Of a DNA stretch of 64,000 nt, positions 9,146-18,704 are shown piece after piece. Source of the stretch: Escherichia phage vB_EcoM_G2133; sequence record MK327928.1; one strand, 5' to 3'. The position numbers and the translations under genes were made by a program. The notes below the pieces were generated by a model, which saw only the letters and a list, made by a program, of their open reading frames with translations, did no database searches and was not told where the DNA came from. Numbering within the stretch: position 1 is the first letter of the stretch; each line of letters starts with the position of its first letter.

Positions 9146-9616
9146 TTAATCATGTTTCCACACCCCATCGGTATTTGACCAAAGCCGCTGATTATCTGAT
9201 CCTCGCCACAGCTTTTTAGTCGGAAGATTTTTCTCATACTTCCCATCAATAATAACATCAACATATTTAAGCATTTCTAGTTGTTTAATATCTTCAAACT
9301 TATATCCTGTCCACAACCAAATGCTTTTATTGGGATAAAGATTTTTTACTGTTTGAACAATACAATGAATAACATCTCGATTGTCAGGATAGAGAGGGTC
9401 TCCTCCAGTTATAGTCAATCCTTCTATATAATCATTATTCAAACATTCAATTAATTGTTCTAGTGTTTCACCAGTGAATGGAATACCATTTCTAGCATTC
9501 CATGTTGATTTATTATAACACCCTTCACATTTATGCAAACAACCTGTAACGAAAAGAACGACCCTGCAACCAGGGCCATTCACAAAATCGCAAGGATAAA
9601 ATCTATCATAATTCAT
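9146..9616 (-). CDS. nrdG: Anaerobic ribonucleotide reductase activating protein NrdG (radical SAM)
   Basis: 156 aa; CxxxCxxC cluster motif (GCLHKCEGC); stop overlaps the nrdD start region. Confidence 0.9.
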   Translation of the reverse strand: MNYDRFYPCDFVNGPGCRVVLFVTGCLHKCEGCYNKSTWNARNGIPFTGETLEQLIECLNNDYIEGLTITGGDPLYPDNRDVIHCIVQTVKNLYPNKSIWLWTGYKFEDIKQLEMLKYVDVIIDGKYEKNLPTKKLWRGSDNQRLWSNTDGVWKHD

Positions 9617-11430
9617 TGGTGTTTAACCCTATGCATGATTTCTTTATTTTTGCCGAGATTAAATCCGCGTTCGTTCGGATTTCCCAAATAACCACATGTT
9701 CTTCTTATGGTATTCATCTTTTTAGGATCAGTTTCTCCACAAATAGAACAAACAAATCCGTTTTCAGTAGGAGTCATTTCATGGGTACTTCCACATGTAA
9801 AACATTTATCTACCGGCATGTTAACACCAAAATAATCTAAATGTTGTGCAGCATAATCCCATACAGCCTCAAGACCTTTTAGATTATTTTTCATATCAGG
9901 AAGTTCAACATAAGAAATGTGACCACCTGTCGCAATGAAATGATATGGCGCTTCACGAGAAATCTTTTCAAACGGAGTAATATTTTCTTCTACTGAAACA
10001 TGGAAACTGTTAGTGTACCAGCCTTTATCAGTAACATCTTTTACACTTCCATATTTTTCTGTATCGAGTTTACAGAAGCGATAACAAAGGTTTTCAGCAG
10101 GAGTAGAATATAAACTAAAAGCAAATCCGGTTCTTTCAGTCCACTGTTTAAGATGGGCATTCATTTTAGTTAAAATTTCCTGTCCAATATCACGACCGAC
10201 AAGAATATTCAATTCGTGAATACCAATGTATCCTAGGGACACTGAACTTCTACCGTTTTTAAATAACTCAATTATGTCGTCATCAGGTTTAAGACGAACC
10301 CCGAATGCACCTTCTTGGTAAAGAATAGGAGCAACAGTAGCTTTAACTCCTTTTAAGGAACTAATTCTACACATCAAAGCTTCAAAACATAAATCCATTC
10401 GTTCATTGAATAATTCAACAAATTTCTGTTCATTGAACTGTGTTCCAATATAAGAATCTAACGCTATGCGAGGAAGATTCAATGTTACAACACCAAGATT
10501 ATTACGTCCATCAAGAATTTCATTACCAGTCGAATCTTTCCATACGCTCAAGAAACTACGGCAACCCATTGGAGAAACAGGAACAGATGAACCAGTGATA
10601 GCTTTATTGTTCTTAGCTGAAATAATATCAGGATACATTCTTTTGCTTGCGCACTCTAAAGCAAGCTGTTTAATATCATAGTTCGGATCGTCTTTATAAA
10701 GATTAACACCTTCTTCAACGAACATAACAAGCTTAGGAAAAATAGGAGTTATCCCATCACGACCGAGACCTTTAATACGATTTTTCAGAATTGCTTTCTG
10801 AATCATTCGTTCAGTCCAGTCAGTTCCCGTACCAAATGTAATTGTTACAAAAGGTGTTTGTCCGTTTGAACTAAAGAGAGTATTTACTTCATATTCATAA
10901 GCTTGGAATGCATCGTATACGTCTTTTTCTGTTTTAGATTGAGCATAATTCAGTGCATCGGCGATTTGCCATTTTTCTGCATCCTCAATATGTTTTGCAT
11001 AGGTACGTTTAACATAAGGAGAAAGTACTTTATCTACATTCGCAAAAGTCGTTCCGCCGTACTGGTGTGAAGCAACCTGTGCAGTAATTTGTGCCATAAT
11101 TGCAGTAGCAACACCGATTAATTTAGGAGTTTCAATCTGCGCATTACCAAGCTTAAATCCGTTCTCAAGCATTCCTTTTAAATCTACTAAACAACAATTA
11201 GTAAATGGAAGAGCAGGGGAATAATCAATATCATGGAAATGGATAATTCCGCTTTCATGCGCTTTCATAATAAAAGACGGGACCATATTTTTGGCAATGT
11301 GTTTAGACACAATACCAGCCATAAGGTCCCGTTGAGTTGGAAAAACACGAGAATCTTTATTAGCATTCTCGTTTAAAAGGTCTTTATTAGTTTTATGAAT
11401 CAATCCTTCAATTTCTTTTTCAATTGTCAT
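9613..11430 (-). CDS. nrdD: Anaerobic ribonucleoside-triphosphate reductase NrdD, uninterrupted
   Basis: 605 aa continuous ORF; C-terminal glycyl-radical and Zn-ribbon region (CFTCGSTHE...CSICGETD...RRTCGYLGNP). Confidence 0.92.
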   Translation of the reverse strand: MTIEKEIEGLIHKTNKDLLNENANKDSRVFPTQRDLMAGIVSKHIAKNMVPSFIMKAHESGIIHFHDIDYSPALPFTNCCLVDLKGMLENGFKLGNAQIETPKLIGVATAIMAQITAQVASHQYGGTTFANVDKVLSPYVKRTYAKHIEDAEKWQIADALNYAQSKTEKDVYDAFQAYEYEVNTLFSSNGQTPFVTITFGTGTDWTERMIQKAILKNRIKGLGRDGITPIFPKLVMFVEEGVNLYKDDPNYDIKQLALECASKRMYPDIISAKNNKAITGSSVPVSPMGCRSFLSVWKDSTGNEILDGRNNLGVVTLNLPRIALDSYIGTQFNEQKFVELFNERMDLCFEALMCRISSLKGVKATVAPILYQEGAFGVRLKPDDDIIELFKNGRSSVSLGYIGIHELNILVGRDIGQEILTKMNAHLKQWTERTGFAFSLYSTPAENLCYRFCKLDTEKYGSVKDVTDKGWYTNSFHVSVEENITPFEKISREAPYHFIATGGHISYVELPDMKNNLKGLEAVWDYAAQHLDYFGVNMPVDKCFTCGSTHEMTPTENGFVCSICGETDPKKMNTIRRTCGYLGNPNERGFNLGKNKEIMHRVKHQ

Positions 11431-12517: not shown

Positions 12518-12721
12518 CTACAGTTTCCCATCTAGCCGCCCACCAGGGTTTAACCCCCGAAGCTTATTAAGTTCTTCATAATCAATCCAGGATTCTAATC
12601 CTGATGGCAAATCAGATTCAATTTCCCAAAGAAGCTCTTCAATTTTCTGAAGACGATCTAGTTCTTCAGCTGGAATAGTAACCATTGATGGAGTTCTTGA
12701 TACACTAATATCGTAAATCAT
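12518..12721 (-). CDS. Hypothetical small protein
   Basis: ORF trimmed to the ATG at 12721. Confidence 0.35.
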   Translation of the reverse strand: MIYDISVSRTPSMVTIPAEELDRLQKIEELLWEIESDLPSGLESWIDYEELNKLRGLNPGGRLDGKL

Positions 12722-12723
12722 AT

Positions 12724-12939
12724 TTACCCCAGTTTGACCATGCAATCGCCGTATTTCCACTTAGAAATAGACTTTTCGCCATTAGAATAATAAACTTCGA
12801 GTTTAGCACGGTTATTTTTAATTTGAATAATCTTTGCTGTCATCAAAGTTCCATACCCATAATAAACTGCAACTTCATCACCTACATATACCGCGCTTCC
12901 GCGGTAATCATGGATATAGTCAGTTCCTTCGAGCATCAT
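12724..12939 (-). CDS. Hypothetical small protein
   Basis: 71 aa; ATG overlaps the nrdC stop (ATGA). Confidence 0.4.
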   Translation of the reverse strand: MMLEGTDYIHDYRGSAVYVGDEVAVYYGYGTLMTAKIIQIKNNRAKLEVYYSNGEKSISKWKYGDCMVKLG

Positions 12940-13443: not shown

Positions 13444-13744
13444 TTTCTTCTCGGTCAAATCGGTGTTTACAATGGCGACATTTATAACGAAGATTACTAG
13501 TCTGCCAATGGACCAATTGCACCTGTTCAGTTCCACATTCAGGGCAATTAGGAACGTTTTTAGAAGCACGTTCGCGGCGTTCAACCATGACCATTACAGA
13601 ATCCCAATTAATAGGGCTGCTATAATCATCACAACCATGAATCTTTCCACGCATTTCCAAATCGTCTTCTTCACCGGCCATAATAATTTTAATTAAACTG
13701 GAATTACTTGAAGCTGCAATGTCTTCTAATAGACGCTTTTTCAT
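13430..13744 (-). CDS. Hypothetical zinc-ribbon protein
   Basis: 104 aa with CPECG...CRHCKH paired-cysteine motifs. Confidence 0.45.
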
Positions 13745-14673
13745 TTCAATATCTCAATAGCATTACGTAAACCATTTGCTTTTGCATTAAGAGCTTTTAA
13801 CAATTTGGTGTGTTCTGCAATTTGGGCTTCAACTTCAATCAAACGAGCATTGAGATATTCGCGTTCTTCACTCAGATTATCAGCCTTTTCTGCTTTAGGT
13901 TCTTTTACAACTTGCTTATATGTATTAGGGTTCTTCAGTTTAATTAGAATGCGTGAACTGTACAGCATTGAACCATTATCTTCGGTTTCGTCATACATTT
14001 CCACTACGTCCATCATCTCCACCATCGTGCAGAGTTTATAAGACAACGAACGAATAATTTTGTTGTGCTTATTAATTTCTCTAGCTGTCATGGTGCCGAG
14101 ATTACGTGAGTAATAATAAGGAACCTGGATATTAATTAATACTGATGAACCACCTGGCTTGTGTGTTACTTCATCAGCAATAACCCAATCCTTAACATGA
14201 ACTGTATTTGTACGGTCATCTCCCGCGGTAAATAGTTTACGAGCATGCTTAAAAAGCATATTCACTTGGTCATTGAATTGACAAGCGAATTTATCAGCAA
14301 ATTTAGTTTCGGGAATGGTAGATAACCAATCAGCCAAATGGGTCTTTTTAACATCGTTAACAATAGTAAATTCAACCAAATCGGTTATAGATGTCTCAGA
14401 TTTAATGAAGCTCGGCTTCATAAAGTTTTTAATGTTATCACTAGCTACAGTAGAAGATAACAGACGAGAACGTTTAAACCATTGAAGCAAATTGCCTAAC
14501 GAATGAGAATAAGCGTTTTGAGTATCTTTACAGATATGATTTTCCTGGCCAACATATTGAAGGAAATCACGAAGAATATTATTATTGATTACTGCCCTGT
14601 GTCCTATCTGATAATTACGATGTTTAGTAATAAGACTGTCAAAATAATCAATATAATGTTTACGAGTTTTCAT
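13741..14673 (-). CDS. Hypothetical protein with C-terminal coiled coil (nrdC.x-type block)
   Basis: 310 aa; C-terminus [42 protein letters not shown] has heptad character. Confidence 0.55.
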   Translation of the reverse strand: MKTRKHYIDYFDSLITKHRNYQIGHRAVINNNILRDFLQYVGQENHICKDTQNAYSHSLGNLLQWFKRSRLLSSTVASDNIKNFMKPSFIKSETSITDLVEFTIVNDVKKTHLADWLSTIPETKFADKFACQFNDQVNMLFKHARKLFTAGDDRTNTVHVKDWVIADEVTHKPGGSSVLINIQVPYYYSRNLGTMTAREINKHNKIIRSLSYKLCTMVEMMDVVEMYDETEDNGSMLYSSRILIKLKNPNTYKQVVKEPKAEKADNLSEEREYLNARLIEVEAQIAEHTKLLKALNAKANGLRNAIEILK

Positions 14674-14725
14674 GTTCTTCTCACTTTGTTAATGATTTGT
14701 ACTCCGAGCCATCCTTGGCTTTAAA

Positions 14726-15727
14726 TTACTTAATTAACTGTAAAGCTTGTTCAAGACGATCAAGACGATTAACAGATTCTTCCCAAATCCTTTTAGCCTG
14801 CTCATATTCTTTCTGCGCTTTATTAGAAATTTCTAGAACTTCTTTATAAGCTTTTTCTAGTGCAATAACTTCTGGACGAATTTCTACCGATTCAGGTGAA
14901 TCATCAAGATTATCCATTAGTTCCTCAAGGGTAGTTTCTTCTTTAGGAGTATTCACAATTTCATCACATTTTTGCTGGTAAATTTCTTTATCAGTCGGTG
15001 AGTACGCACACTTTACTTCACGAAGACTAATTACAATTTTATATCCTTCCCAACCACCCATATTTTTGAAAGGATATGTATGAATACTTTTTACAGTTTC
15101 CATACAATCCAAAGCCGTCTCTAATTGATGAGTTATAGTGCTAGCAATTGAGAAAAATTTATTAATATTCTTTTGGTTAGCTTCTGGTGTAAAAAATTCG
15201 TAATTCACAAAAATAGCTACTTTATTTTTATCAAGCTCATATTCTTTTACGATAATCATATCAGAAGCCAAAGGATGAATTTGACGATAATCGCCATAAC
15301 ATAATTTAGAAGCTGATTTTAGAATTTGTCCTTTAAAAAGTCTGAAATTACTAATCCAACGACGAGTAAAAATATTCTTAGGGTCTTCTTTGATATTAAG
15401 ATGATAAGAATTAACATCACCGAACCAATTGTATCCTATTACACCTTTAGTTCGTTTAATTTCTTTCCCAAAATTACCAAGAATATCCCGATTAACTAAA
15501 TATGAAAGAAGACGAGACCCTTTAAAGATTATCTTAATATCATCTTTATCTACACGGCTAGAAATTTCACGAACTTCATGAATAAATTTACTGGAAGAAA
15601 CAATACTTGCATCAATACTACTGAGCCATTGATTGATAATAGAAAGAACAGCGTTCTGACTAGACATGGGTTTAACTTTATCATCAATAACGCTATTGAA
15701 TGATTTGATATATTCGTTACGAGTCAT
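14726..15727 (-). CDS. Hypothetical protein with C-terminal coiled coil
   Basis: Start set at the ATG at 15727 (GAGGAG Shine-Dalgarno); C-terminus KAQKEYEQAKRIWEESVNRLDRLEQALQLIK. Confidence 0.55.
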   Translation of the reverse strand: MTRNEYIKSFNSVIDDKVKPMSSQNAVLSIINQWLSSIDASIVSSSKFIHEVREISSRVDKDDIKIIFKGSRLLSYLVNRDILGNFGKEIKRTKGVIGYNWFGDVNSYHLNIKEDPKNIFTRRWISNFRLFKGQILKSASKLCYGDYRQIHPLASDMIIVKEYELDKNKVAIFVNYEFFTPEANQKNINKFFSIASTITHQLETALDCMETVKSIHTYPFKNMGGWEGYKIVISLREVKCAYSPTDKEIYQQKCDEIVNTPKEETTLEELMDNLDDSPESVEIRPEVIALEKAYKEVLEISNKAQKEYEQAKRIWEESVNRLDRLEQALQLIK

Positions 15728-15755
15728 ATTAATCTCCTCAGTAGAAAGTAAGAAC

Positions 15756-15785
15756 ATTATACCACATCCTTGTGGCAAAGTAAAC
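15756..15785 (-). promoter_or_regulatory. T4-type early promoter
   Basis: Minus strand reads GTTTAC, 18 nt, TATAAT; overlaps the stop of the upstream gene. Confidence 0.5.
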
Positions 15786-16807
15786 TAGTTCAGTGCATTT
15801 AGTGCATTGTTCAGTTTAGAACGTTGCTTTGTCAGATTTTGAACCCTTGACTGAGCTTGTTCTAACGCCTTTTCAGCTTCTAGCACTTCATTGGTCGCTT
15901 TAACGAGTTCATCATCTACTGCCTTAAGAGACTTCTCAATCGCGTCAGCGTGCCATTTTTCTACAGGTTTAAAATTTGAATTTTCAGTAGGAAGAAAACT
16001 CACTTTATTAAGTTTACATGCATCTTTATTACCTGAACTATACATCCAAAATTTAGGATCGTTTGATAAGTAATTAGATAAATTTAAGTTATCTTGCACT
16101 TCCTGCTTTTTCTCTTGTGTAACTTCGTCCTTTCTCAAAAAATCATATTTAAATGAAACGATCATATCAAGTTCATATGTTGTCGTATCTAATTTAAATC
16201 GTTCGAAATGCTGCGAAATCTTAGACTGAACAGCAGAAACAACATCCATATACTTAAATGCTTCTGTCAACTGTGATTTAAGGCATTCACAAATTGAAAG
16301 AGAATTTTTTGTATTAGGTTTAAAGCTAATTCGTGCAGTTCTATTATTTTCTTTTAATGGTCTTACTTCCATCTGAAGAGTATAACCATCAAATTTCAGG
16401 TTCTTTAAGTTAATATCAGAACCTTTTAATCGACTCGCAGTTGATAAAATTTGCTTTAATTGTCTACGGAACAGAGCAATAAATCTCCATTCAATACGAT
16501 AATGATTTGGATTGAAAAATCCAGATGATAAATCGACCTTACTTTGACCAACGCCTTGAACAAATAGAGGATTTTTATAATCAATAGTTTTACAGAAATC
16601 GGTGAGCTGCTCACGAGCAGTCATTTGTGTAATATACCCTGCTTCATTAAAATTACGCACCCATTCACTGCTGTTCAGATGTTTAAAGGCGTGAATGGAA
16701 CAATTAACTTTATTAAGGTCTAAATTATTTTCACACAAAAATGTCATAGCATCACGAGTATAGCTTGCATTACGAACCATATCTTCAATTTGAGAACGAG
16801 TTTTCAT
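15785..16807 (-). CDS. Hypothetical protein with C-terminal coiled coil
   Basis: 340 aa; C-terminus LEAEKALEQAQSRVQNLTKQRSKLNNALNALN. Confidence 0.55.
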   Translation of the reverse strand: MKTRSQIEDMVRNASYTRDAMTFLCENNLDLNKVNCSIHAFKHLNSSEWVRNFNEAGYITQMTAREQLTDFCKTIDYKNPLFVQGVGQSKVDLSSGFFNPNHYRIEWRFIALFRRQLKQILSTASRLKGSDINLKNLKFDGYTLQMEVRPLKENNRTARISFKPNTKNSLSICECLKSQLTEAFKYMDVVSAVQSKISQHFERFKLDTTTYELDMIVSFKYDFLRKDEVTQEKKQEVQDNLNLSNYLSNDPKFWMYSSGNKDACKLNKVSFLPTENSNFKPVEKWHADAIEKSLKAVDDELVKATNEVLEAEKALEQAQSRVQNLTKQRSKLNNALNALN

Positions 16808-16815
16808 AGTGTTCC

Positions 16816-17706
16816 TTAAGATTTAAGTAAATCAACAATTTTAATTAATTTTTCACGTTCAGATTTAGCTTTACTACTCAATCCAGATAGTCTAAAGATT
16901 TCATCGTCATATTGTTGAATAGAAATATTCAGCTCTTCAATCTGTTTATTAAAATAATCAATTTGTTCAGAATGTTTTTCATTACTACGAACTGATACAG
17001 GTTTTGTAGGCAATTTAGTTGAACTAGATTCATCCGGGCGATAAATTAAAATACAACTTGAACCAATTGGACATTTTGCACCAGATGAATATTCTAATGT
17101 TCCGGCTTCTTTTAAAACTTCAAAAGCTAAACAGAGATGATGCCCCATATTAACATAATCAGTAGAGCGAGCTCTGATGTAATAATCATCTCCGCGAATA
17201 CTAAATTTAAAGCATTTAAGGTCTTCTGTATTATTGGTCTTAAAAATCATTTGTTTATTTAGACCTTTAGCTAATCGAGCGCCTAATGCTAATAATCGTC
17301 GTTGATTTTCCCACAAATCTGCGATCATTTGGTCAAATGATAATTTCGGCATTAGTCGACCATAAAGGTCGTATCCTTTATTATAATTGCGAAGGATTTC
17401 ACTCGCGTTAATACGGGACAATGCTCCAATTTTATTAAGGGCTTTCATAATGCGATTAGATAAACTCATTCCAGACCCGTTTGTTCGCTGTAAATGTTTT
17501 TCTAATCCAAATCCAATATCAACTTTAAATTTATCTAAAATTTCAGCATGAACATCTCTGTCAATAACATTCAAATCCAGAGTTGGGTTAAATCTATGAA
17601 AAAATTTATCTGGCTCTCCACGACGAAGTACAGTCCATTCATTCATCATTTTTTTATTAACTAAAGATTTAATTACTGCATTGACATTATTAATTACGAC
17701 TGACAT
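16816..17706 (-). CDS. Hypothetical protein with C-terminal coiled coil
   Basis: Start at the ATG at 17706 (GAGGAAAA Shine-Dalgarno); C-terminus QIEELNISIQQYDDEIFRLSGLSSKAKSEREKLIKIVDLLKS. Confidence 0.55.
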   Translation of the reverse strand: MSVVINNVNAVIKSLVNKKMMNEWTVLRRGEPDKFFHRFNPTLDLNVIDRDVHAEILDKFKVDIGFGLEKHLQRTNGSGMSLSNRIMKALNKIGALSRINASEILRNYNKGYDLYGRLMPKLSFDQMIADLWENQRRLLALGARLAKGLNKQMIFKTNNTEDLKCFKFSIRGDDYYIRARSTDYVNMGHHLCLAFEVLKEAGTLEYSSGAKCPIGSSCILIYRPDESSSTKLPTKPVSVRSNEKHSEQIDYFNKQIEELNISIQQYDDEIFRLSGLSSKAKSEREKLIKIVDLLKS

Positions 17707-18176: not shown

Positions 18177-18704
18177 TTATGCGAGTACCGTCTTTAACCG
18201 TTCTTCAAACTTCCGAAGAGTATTCTGGCGTTCAGCTCTTTGCTTTTTGTAAGTTTCAATACGCTCTGAAATGAGAGTGTATCGTTCATTTACTGATTCT
18301 TTCATAAAATCAGGAATTTCACGAGAAGCTTTAATCTCGTCAAATTTATCAATAACAGCTTGCTCTTCAGCAATTAAGTTATCATACATCAAAATATCTT
18401 TCTTGATGAACTCAATATCTTCTTGAGTTACACGAGATAATTTAGATGCTTTATCCTTTTTGTACTGTTCGTTAGTATCACGAGACCAGTGTAATGTACG
18501 ATTTTTATTCGTATTCTTGTAAATTTCTACAATACCAATCTCATCGATAATAACGATCCAATTCCAACGGGATTTGTAAATTTGTCCTCCATCAACAGTG
18601 ATTTCACCTCCAATTGAGATGTCATTAAAGAACTTGCTTTGTGCTTCAGATTTAAATTTACCATCGTTGTAATTTACCAGGTTGAAAATATCTTTAGCGT
18701 TCAT
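18177..18704 (-). CDS. Hypothetical protein
   Basis: 175 aa from the ATG at 18704 (GGAGGAA Shine-Dalgarno), directly downstream of an early promoter. Confidence 0.5.
   Translation of the reverse strand: MNAKDIFNLVNYNDGKFKSEAQSKFFNDISIGGEITVDGGQIYKSRWNWIVIIDEIGIVEIYKNTNKNRTLHWSRDTNEQYKKDKASKLSRVTQEDIEFIKKDILMYDNLIAEEQAVIDKFDEIKASREIPDFMKESVNERYTLISERIETYKKQRAERQNTLRKFEERLKTVLA

Follow-up and report, generated by a model that had tools for sequence, protein, structure and literature searches.

In the 64,000-nucleotide (nt) stretch of Escherichia phage vB_EcoM_G2133 analysed here (MK327928.1, hereafter the window), four consecutive genes form an array that corresponds, by synteny with the T4 record, to nrdC.3, nrdC.4, nrdC.5 and nrdC.6 (Table 1; open reading frames (ORFs) 1 to 4, in coordinate order). 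The first-pass annotation had described four tightly packed same-strand genes of 296-340 amino acids (aa) in the position of the T4 nrdC.x block. The ORF positions, all on the minus strand, confirm the former, while T4 annotation and synteny confirm the latter and narrow it to nrdC.3-nrdC.6. With nrdC.2 on one side and nrdC.7 on the other, the array is part of the early nrdC region and lies on the strand transcribed early; NrdD, endonuclease VII, pin and NrdC flank it. Only 52, 57 and 8 nt separate successive genes. Upstream in-frame TTG codons offer alternative starts for ORFs 2 and 4; the ATG starts agree with the T4 annotation. The window belongs to a Tequatrovirus other than T4, and the 4-kb block containing the array matches 650 phage records, nearly all of them T-even-like, with a best identity of 96.5%. 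ORF3 is the orthologue of T4 nrdC.5: residues 1-331 are 92.7% identical, and the two genes hold the same place in their arrays.

Table 1. Features of the nrdC.3-nrdC.6 array, in window coordinates.
Feature	Position	Strand	Evidence and remarks
nrdC.3 orthologue, 310 aa	13741-14673	-	phrog_1435, E 3e-114; PF26897, precomputed on its family; T4 synteny
Putative nrdC.3 C-terminal amphipathic helix, ~residues 266-310	13744-13878	-	Heptad score 16.8; 13/1000 shuffles reach this score
nrdC.4 orthologue, 333 aa	14726-15727	-	phrog_1435, E 2e-165; paralogue of nrdC.3
nrdC.4 C-terminal helix, residues 285-332, ending DRLEQALQLIK	14732-14875	-	Continuous helix in AlphaFold2 model; heptad score 15.1
nrdC.4 central α/β core, residues 88-235, putative tail-terminator/tail-completion-like fold	15023-15466	-	
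Promoter-like site, TTTACT-17 nt-TATAAT with upstream TG	15756-15784	-	Consensus scan; in the 57-nt gap before nrdC.4; weak evidence
nrdC.5 orthologue, 340 aa	15785-16807	-	DUF7235 / PF23882 full-length match, E 1e-114; phrog_2351
nrdC.5 C-terminal helix, residues 281-339, ending KQRSKLNNALNALN	15791-15967	-	Helix in AlphaFold2 model; heptad score 18.5
nrdC.6 orthologue, 296 aa, intact in the window	16816-17706	-	PF26899; phrog_2257, E 3e-150
nrdC.6 C-terminal tail, ~residues 246-296, ending SEREKLIKIVDLLKS	16819-16971	-	Heptad score 16.4; 3/1000 shuffles reach this score

Two of the four genes, nrdC.3 and nrdC.4, are clear paralogues; they share phrog_1435 and PF26897, align with an hhalign probability of 98%, and are the only pair with a significant hit in BLASTP comparisons among the four proteins (E 2e-5). 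In contrast, nrdC.5 (PF23882, phrog_2351) and nrdC.6 (PF26899, phrog_2257) are filed as separate families, the latter with members of identity as low as 43%. A Pfam scan of the four ORFs gave a match for nrdC.5 alone; the labels PF26897, PF23882 and PF26899 are precomputed Pfam assignments for homologues, and the PHROG E-values of the ORFs range from 3e-114 to 2e-165. An initial hhalign comparison with shallow alignments found weak links outside the nrdC.3/nrdC.4 pair.

We therefore enriched the profiles with diverged homologues, found by scanning fetched loci with hidden Markov models (HMMs) of each family, and it was only after this enrichment that the links became significant. Diverged nrdC.5 homologues lie directly upstream of nrdC.4 in Dhakavirus-type phages (~26% identity over ~90% of the length), and other genera, namely Marfavirus (P0254 / phage P545), Kanagawavirus (IME523, PEi20) and Mosugukvirus (PM2), carry a single-copy relative at the same place in the genome. 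This single-copy family acts as a hub: it is matched by nrdC.3/4 (96.9% probability, E 1.8e-10; E 2.4e-8 with the C-terminal tails removed), by nrdC.5 (96.7%, E 3.2e-10; E 0.014 without tails) and by nrdC.6 (93.6%, E 2.2e-7; E 2.8e-5 without tails). The nrdC.3/4 and nrdC.5 profiles also match one another directly (88.5%, E 2.8e-6; E 1e-4 without tails). As negative controls we used 32 comparisons with unrelated neighbouring gene families, all of which stayed at background (at most 1.2% probability, E of at least 0.046), indicating that the hhalign statistic is calibrated.

Independent classifications agree with these links. The single-copy proteins belong to phrog_26858, and cross-hit phrog_1435 over their full length (E 2e-9), phrog_2257 over the globular region (E 7e-6 to 3e-4) and phrog_2351 (E 4e-11 to 6e-4); in the other direction, nrdC.4 and nrdC.5 give weak phrog_26858 matches. 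The bridging HMM matches span the globular parts of the proteins, and tblastn links between genera reach E-values of 2e-9 to 3e-13. In the profile alignments, several blocks are colinear across the families: a motif at the end of the N-terminal bundle (A/S…L-x-(N/D)-(F/Y)-(G/N)-K), a long core helix, and a cap at the start of the tail (P-x-x-x-E-(K/R)). The tails themselves end in a motif close to QR-x-KL-x-x-A-[LI]-x-x-LK, where the bracketed position is hydrophobic. An exhaustive HMMER search with the nrdC.3/4 profile returned 11 clusters, none outside the family. Upstream of the single-copy members lies a ~257-aa gene that has no relation to it. The first-pass annotation had offered an old paralogous family as one of two explanations for the array, and it is supported by the comparisons between profiles, by the cross-hits among curated PHROGs, by the colinear motifs and by structure searches (below): the four genes are diverged paralogues of one gene family, which is specific to T4-like (Straboviridae) phages.

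We modelled two of the proteins with AlphaFold2. The nrdC.4 model, built from the family alignment, has a mean predicted local distance difference test (pLDDT) score of 84.4; along the chain it shows a bundle of helices at the N-terminus (residues 3-84), the α/β core (88-235), a pair of short helices, a linker (276-283) and the C-terminal helix (285-332). For nrdC.5, a shallow alignment gave a model that is poor overall (mean pLDDT 50), yet the order of its secondary-structure elements parallels that of nrdC.4. The architecture predicted for each family member begins with an N-terminal bundle of helices, followed by an α/β core and a linker that varies and is probably disordered; the C-terminal part is a conserved amphipathic helix of ~45-60 residues. 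We detected no enzymatic fold or motif in the family.

Foldseek searches of BFVD with the nrdC.4 model returned uncharacterised proteins of 300-370 aa from many Straboviridae at 10-19% identity (E 1e-8 to 1e-4), from phages whose hosts include Acinetobacter, Enterobacter, Pectobacterium, Klebsiella, Erwinia, Serratia and Yersinia. The weak nrdC.5 model reaches three of the same targets, from phages CBH8 (E 5e-6), Mineola and Cronus. Both models also match BFVD entries whose annotations name tail completion, tail terminator or head-tail connector proteins, and the predicted core may therefore be called tail-terminator-like, at the fold level only. In Acinetobacter phage Acj61, two adjacent genes (330 and 304 aa) between nrdC and nrdC.10 both end in long charged helices. 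We equate these genes (Acj61p120 and Acj61p121) with two of the BFVD hits by length and organism only; their sequence similarity to the family is not significant, making the link a structural one.

The first-pass annotation had also noted that all four proteins end in a coiled-coil segment. We scored the tails for heptad periodicity using a transparent home-made measure, rather than a standard coiled-coil predictor, and compared each with 1000 shuffles of the same tail residues. The observed scores were reached in 3-34 of 1000 shuffles (p 0.003-0.034), and the array tails are the four best scorers among the 85 likely genes in the window. Of the 81 other genes, 80 fall below all four tails, the exception being the nrdC.8 orthologue, whose score reaches that of the lowest. 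Four neighbouring high scorers are far beyond chance, which common ancestry explains. In the AlphaFold2 models, the nrdC.4 tail is a continuous helix of 48 residues (pLDDT 63-85 over the block) following a low-confidence linker, and that of nrdC.5 is a helix of 59 residues (pLDDT 59-92) after a low-confidence linker of ~55 residues. The nrdC.6 tail, which is among the most conserved parts of its family, has a conserved glycine in the middle, and may be kinked there. Long helices (in ORF2 and ORF3) and heptad periodicity thus bear out the earlier description; coiled coil is a reasonable label for the tails, and their oligomerisation is putative.

The nrdC.8 orthologue (18177-18704, minus strand, 175 aa), two genes upstream of the array, likewise has a charged, heptad-like helix at its C-terminus.

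Are the tails homologous, or did they arise by convergence, the second explanation of the first-pass annotation? We aligned tail-only profiles with hhalign to the tail of the single-copy family, using reversed sequences as decoys. The nrdC.5 tail matched with an E-value of 6e-9 (decoys 3e-4 to 3e-3), the nrdC.3 tail with 1.5e-5 (decoys 0.04-0.06) and the nrdC.6 tail with 1.9e-4 (decoys 0.08-0.16), while that of nrdC.4 has diverged furthest. The profile-profile alignments are in register and reach the C-terminus, or nearly so. The coiled-coil-like nrdC.8 tail matched none of the family tails in the same tail-only comparison, and whole-protein profiles likewise show no relation; within the window, the tail HMM matches these four ORFs only. 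Convergent oligomerising tails are therefore disfavoured, as the nrdC.3, nrdC.5 and nrdC.6 tails align in register with the single-copy tail and beat the reversed decoys. Judged by these alignments, the tails look inherited.

Copy number in this family differs between genera. Tequatrovirus phages have four copies per locus, in a fixed order in all loci examined, Dhakavirus-type phages have three (lacking nrdC.3), and Marfavirus, Kanagawavirus and Mosugukvirus have one. The best reading is that a single copy between nrdC.9/10 and nrdC.2 is ancestral, and that a lineage-specific expansion raised it to three copies in Dhakavirus-type phages and to four in Tequatrovirus. The youngest paralogue is nrdC.3.

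We also compared the array with that of T4. The nrdC.3 proteins share only 59.6% amino-acid identity, with a synonymous divergence (dS) of ~1, while the flanking genes are 96-100% identical. Such divergence indicates allele replacement, and, set amid such similar flanks, it shows that two deeply diverged nrdC.3 allele lineages circulate in Tequatrovirus. The other genes are closer, at 89% identity for nrdC.4 and 92.7% for nrdC.5, and the ratio of nonsynonymous to synonymous divergence (dN/dS) is 0.23-0.29 for nrdC.3-5. In comparison, seven of nine neighbouring genes have 97-100% identity and a dN/dS of at most 0.12, the exceptions being nrdC.2 (0.20) and nrdC.7 (0.34). The most conserved member of the array is nrdC.6, with 98% identity over residues 1-259 and a dN/dS of 0.05. 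We also found a natural in-frame fusion (protein P0056; window 13741-16372) on ~167-kb phage contigs, which joins residues 146-272 of nrdC.5 to residues ~139-310 of nrdC.3 with nrdC.4 deleted, revealing recombination within the array.

Two further observations concern the integrity of individual genes. In the Tequatrovirus contig IMGVR_UViG_2974742932_000001 no intact nrdC.4 ORF of at least 200 aa was detected, yet tblastn finds the gene at 88% identity; it may be frameshifted or disrupted. The reference T4 nrdC.6 has a 1-nt deletion at window position ~16925 (window GAGCTGAATATT, T4 GAGCTG-ATATT; T4 locus 10067-10894). This deletion shifts the reading frame off the conserved C-terminal helix, and hence the annotated T4 protein is 275 aa rather than the 296 aa seen in the window. 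The T4 tail is still encoded in the adjacent frame at 97% identity, and the deletion is either a laboratory-strain lesion or an error in the reference sequence.

What do these proteins do? The first-pass annotation knew of no assigned function for the block, which is outdated for one of the four genes. A T4 deletion mutant was found to be unable to infect E. coli ECOR17, owing to the sirtuin defence protein Dsr1, and nrdC.5 alone, expressed from a plasmid, restored infection of dsr1-carrying cells (Srikant, Guegler and Laub, eLife 2022, PMC9391042). The same study calls nrdC.5 an early gene, and the deletions hit none of the essential virion genes; its anti-Dsr1 evidence is genetic and concerns the T4 protein only (PMC9391042). 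For T4 NrdC.5, the literature searched describes no mechanism, no structure and no link to the genes beside it, and a search for DUF7235 found nothing. The ORF3 protein is the orthologue of T4 NrdC.5, while the other three are distant paralogues with the same predicted architecture.

Taken together, we consider the four genes to be diverged paralogues of one early, non-essential T4-like family, and the array to be, with fair probability, a small battery of counter-defence proteins. This analysis shows paralogy and expansion, together with an architecture that is clear for nrdC.4 and predicted for the others, and we infer that nrdC.3, nrdC.4 and nrdC.6 are candidate anti-defence genes. One copy, nrdC.5, has been demonstrated experimentally to be a counter-defence factor, allowing T4 to grow on cells with the Dsr1 SIR2 NADase. 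Each of the diversifying bodies would have its own binding partner among host immune components, probably a sensor, whereas the tail would serve the same purpose in all of them, most plausibly homo-oligomerisation, with several heads displayed on one stalk. As a finding, this belongs with the accessory counter-defence gene families of phages, a known kind. The genes and their separate families were already known; new here are the unification of the superfamily, its predicted architecture, its copy-number history and the putative fold resemblance of its core.

Several results weigh against this interpretation. Functional data exist for nrdC.5 only, with no published mechanism in the literature searched, and none of the proteins match known anti-defence or defence families (a PADLOC match to BrxC was dismissed, as it scored only 14.7 bits and was of coiled-coil type). 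All genes have a dN/dS below 1, and the strong conservation of nrdC.6 (0.05) is unlike that of a typical arms-race gene. On the side of paralogy, a direct profile comparison of nrdC.5 and nrdC.6 was not significant, and the tail-stripped link between nrdC.5 and the single-copy family is weak (E 0.014). The membership of nrdC.5 therefore leans on its link to nrdC.3/4, its tail, the order of its secondary-structure elements and the fold search, the last of which used a poor model (pLDDT 50). PDB sequence searches with three family profiles gave no match. The heptad score is home-made, and tail oligomerisation putative. A leave-one-family-out HMMER test on 30-residue tails was also negative, indicating that the tail motif alone is too short for HMMER; tail homology thus rests on the profile-profile result and whole-protein colinearity.

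A more specific version of the counter-defence reading, which we regard as rather improbable, is that these are early structural mimics. Capsid, connector, tail-terminator and tail-tube folds are now established as shapes recognised by Dsr1/Avs7-type and other Avs-type sensors of host immunity. A neck-protein-like (tail-terminator-like) α/β domain on an oligomerising stalk might occupy such immune sensors without activating them, each paralogue having its own target among Dsr1/Avs7-type and other Avs-type sensors. The array would then be a T4 decoy cassette, duplicating and derived from one of the phage's own structural proteins. Dsr1 shares an Avs7-type sensor that wraps the major capsid protein (2026 study). 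The decoy idea is compatible with the data but has no simple application to Dsr1, as the known trigger is the capsid protein and not a terminator.

Alternatively, the family may have an early role in host takeover or phage physiology unrelated to immunity, with the Dsr1 phenotype of nrdC.5 arising indirectly, through NAD metabolism, timing or the level of the trigger protein. This would fit the location of the block among the nucleotide-metabolism genes nrdD, nrdC and nrdH, the strong purifying selection on nrdC.6, the absence of similarity to known anti-defence families and the lack of a published mechanism for nrdC.5. However, the block is dispensable on laboratory hosts and required on a Dsr1 host, and no enzymatic fold or motif was detected. 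In addition, nrdC.3-5 evolve rapidly and show allele replacement, and their copy number changes from genus to genus, a pattern typical of host-range accessory genes. We consider such a role unlikely, though it is the strongest of the rivals to a counter-defence function.

A little less likely again, the four proteins could be subunits of one hetero-oligomeric complex, assembled through their related tails and acting jointly on a single target. The tails are homologous and conserved, that of nrdC.6 being among the best conserved parts of the protein, and the genes are co-transcribed in an order that is fixed in all Tequatrovirus loci examined. Yet it seems odd for a complex that plasmid-borne nrdC.5 alone rescued the T4 deletion mutant on Dsr1 cells (PMC9391042), and that one copy suffices in other genera. 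The tail-less nrdC.6 reading frame of the reference T4 and the natural phages in which nrdC.4 is deleted or fused also argue against joint action.

Given the possible resemblance of the core to tail terminator and completion proteins, a morphogenetic or neck/tail-associated role could be proposed, and the BFVD entries matched by both models carry just such annotations. This is very unlikely, as the genes belong to the nrdC region, which is early and non-essential, and are read from the early-transcribed strand, away from the late tail genes; nrdC.5 is itself early, and the deletions spare the essential virion genes (PMC9391042). No neck or tail Pfam family was found in the four ORFs or in 45 members scanned at E <= 10, and the N-terminal bundle and C-terminal helix are absent from terminators. 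We also rejected, by inspection, a reading of the MKT N-termini as capsid-targeting sequences. T4 internal proteins, which are targeted to the capsid and injected, have an N-terminal capsid-targeting sequence that ends in an (L/I)-x-E prohead-protease site, and the N-termini here (MKTRKHYIDYF, MTRNEYIKSF, MKTRSQIEDMV and MSVVINNVNA) have no (L/I)-x-E in register within the first ~12 residues.

Finally, that the bodies are unrelated and the tails convergent coiled coils is barely credible and already largely refuted: BLASTP is not significant for most pairs and the leave-one-family-out tail test is negative, but the profile-profile links survive tail stripping under calibrated controls, PHROG cross-hits cover the globular regions, motifs and BFVD structural neighbours are held in common, and the in-register tails beat reversed decoys where the coiled-coil-like nrdC.8 tail finds no match.

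Among known systems, the nearest mechanistic analogy for a counter-defence role of nrdC.5 is DSAD1 of SPbeta-like Bacillus phages, a phage protein that neutralises the defence-associated sirtuin NADase DSR2, as nrdC.5 does Dsr1. DSAD1 is reported to bind the sensor region of DSR2 in competition with the structural protein that serves as trigger. The two differ in host, phage family and target (DSR2 vs Dsr1), and DSAD1 does not belong to an array of paralogues. The PDB hits included no chain of DSAD1 or of a DSR2 complex; the DSAD1 sequence itself was not compared.

Tail terminator and completion proteins (lambda gpU, T5 p142, SPP1 gp17-like, DUF3168) have no sequence similarity to the nrdC proteins, which carry, in addition, a bundle of helices at the N-terminus, a linker and a long helix at the C-terminus, and whose genes are early, non-essential and outside the tail module. 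Another parallel is found in the anti-defence clusters in accessory regions of T-even phages (for example dmd, tifA and adfA, the anti-TA (toxin-antitoxin) island). These too are made up of small accessory genes of the early class; they lie in a hyperplastic region and can be lost through microhomology deletions, with effects on host range. However, the dmd/tifA/adfA cluster is made up of unrelated genes, whereas the nrdC array consists of paralogues of one family.

Although T4 is the best-studied phage, its nrdC block is still mostly blank. With three diverged paralogues beside the anti-Dsr1 gene nrdC.5, and single-copy or paired relatives in many other T4-like genera, three hypothetical genes become concrete anti-defence candidates. 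Three Pfam domains of unknown function (DUFs) and four or five PHROGs, kept apart in the databases, in fact make up a single superfamily. The putative neck-protein resemblance of the core also provides a testable idea of how a phage might blunt shape-based sensors of phage structural proteins.

Some minor observations concern the annotation of the region. Many deposited T4-like genomes annotate homologues of nrdC.3 to nrdC.6 as thioredoxin, with no thioredoxin match in any of them; this looks like an error that has spread from the gene name nrdC.x. The consensus scan that gave the promoter-like site in Table 1 found no more such sites in the region than expected from shuffled sequence. T4 nrdD is split by a group I intron carrying I-TevII, while in the window NrdD (9613-11430, minus strand) is a single uninterrupted ORF of 605 aa; the intron is thus apparently absent from this phage. 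Between pin and nrdC (12518-12939, minus strand), the window has ORFs of 80 and 71 aa in place of T4 49.1, 49.2 and 49.3 (51, 106 and 102 aa), and this interval is another variable spot of the region.

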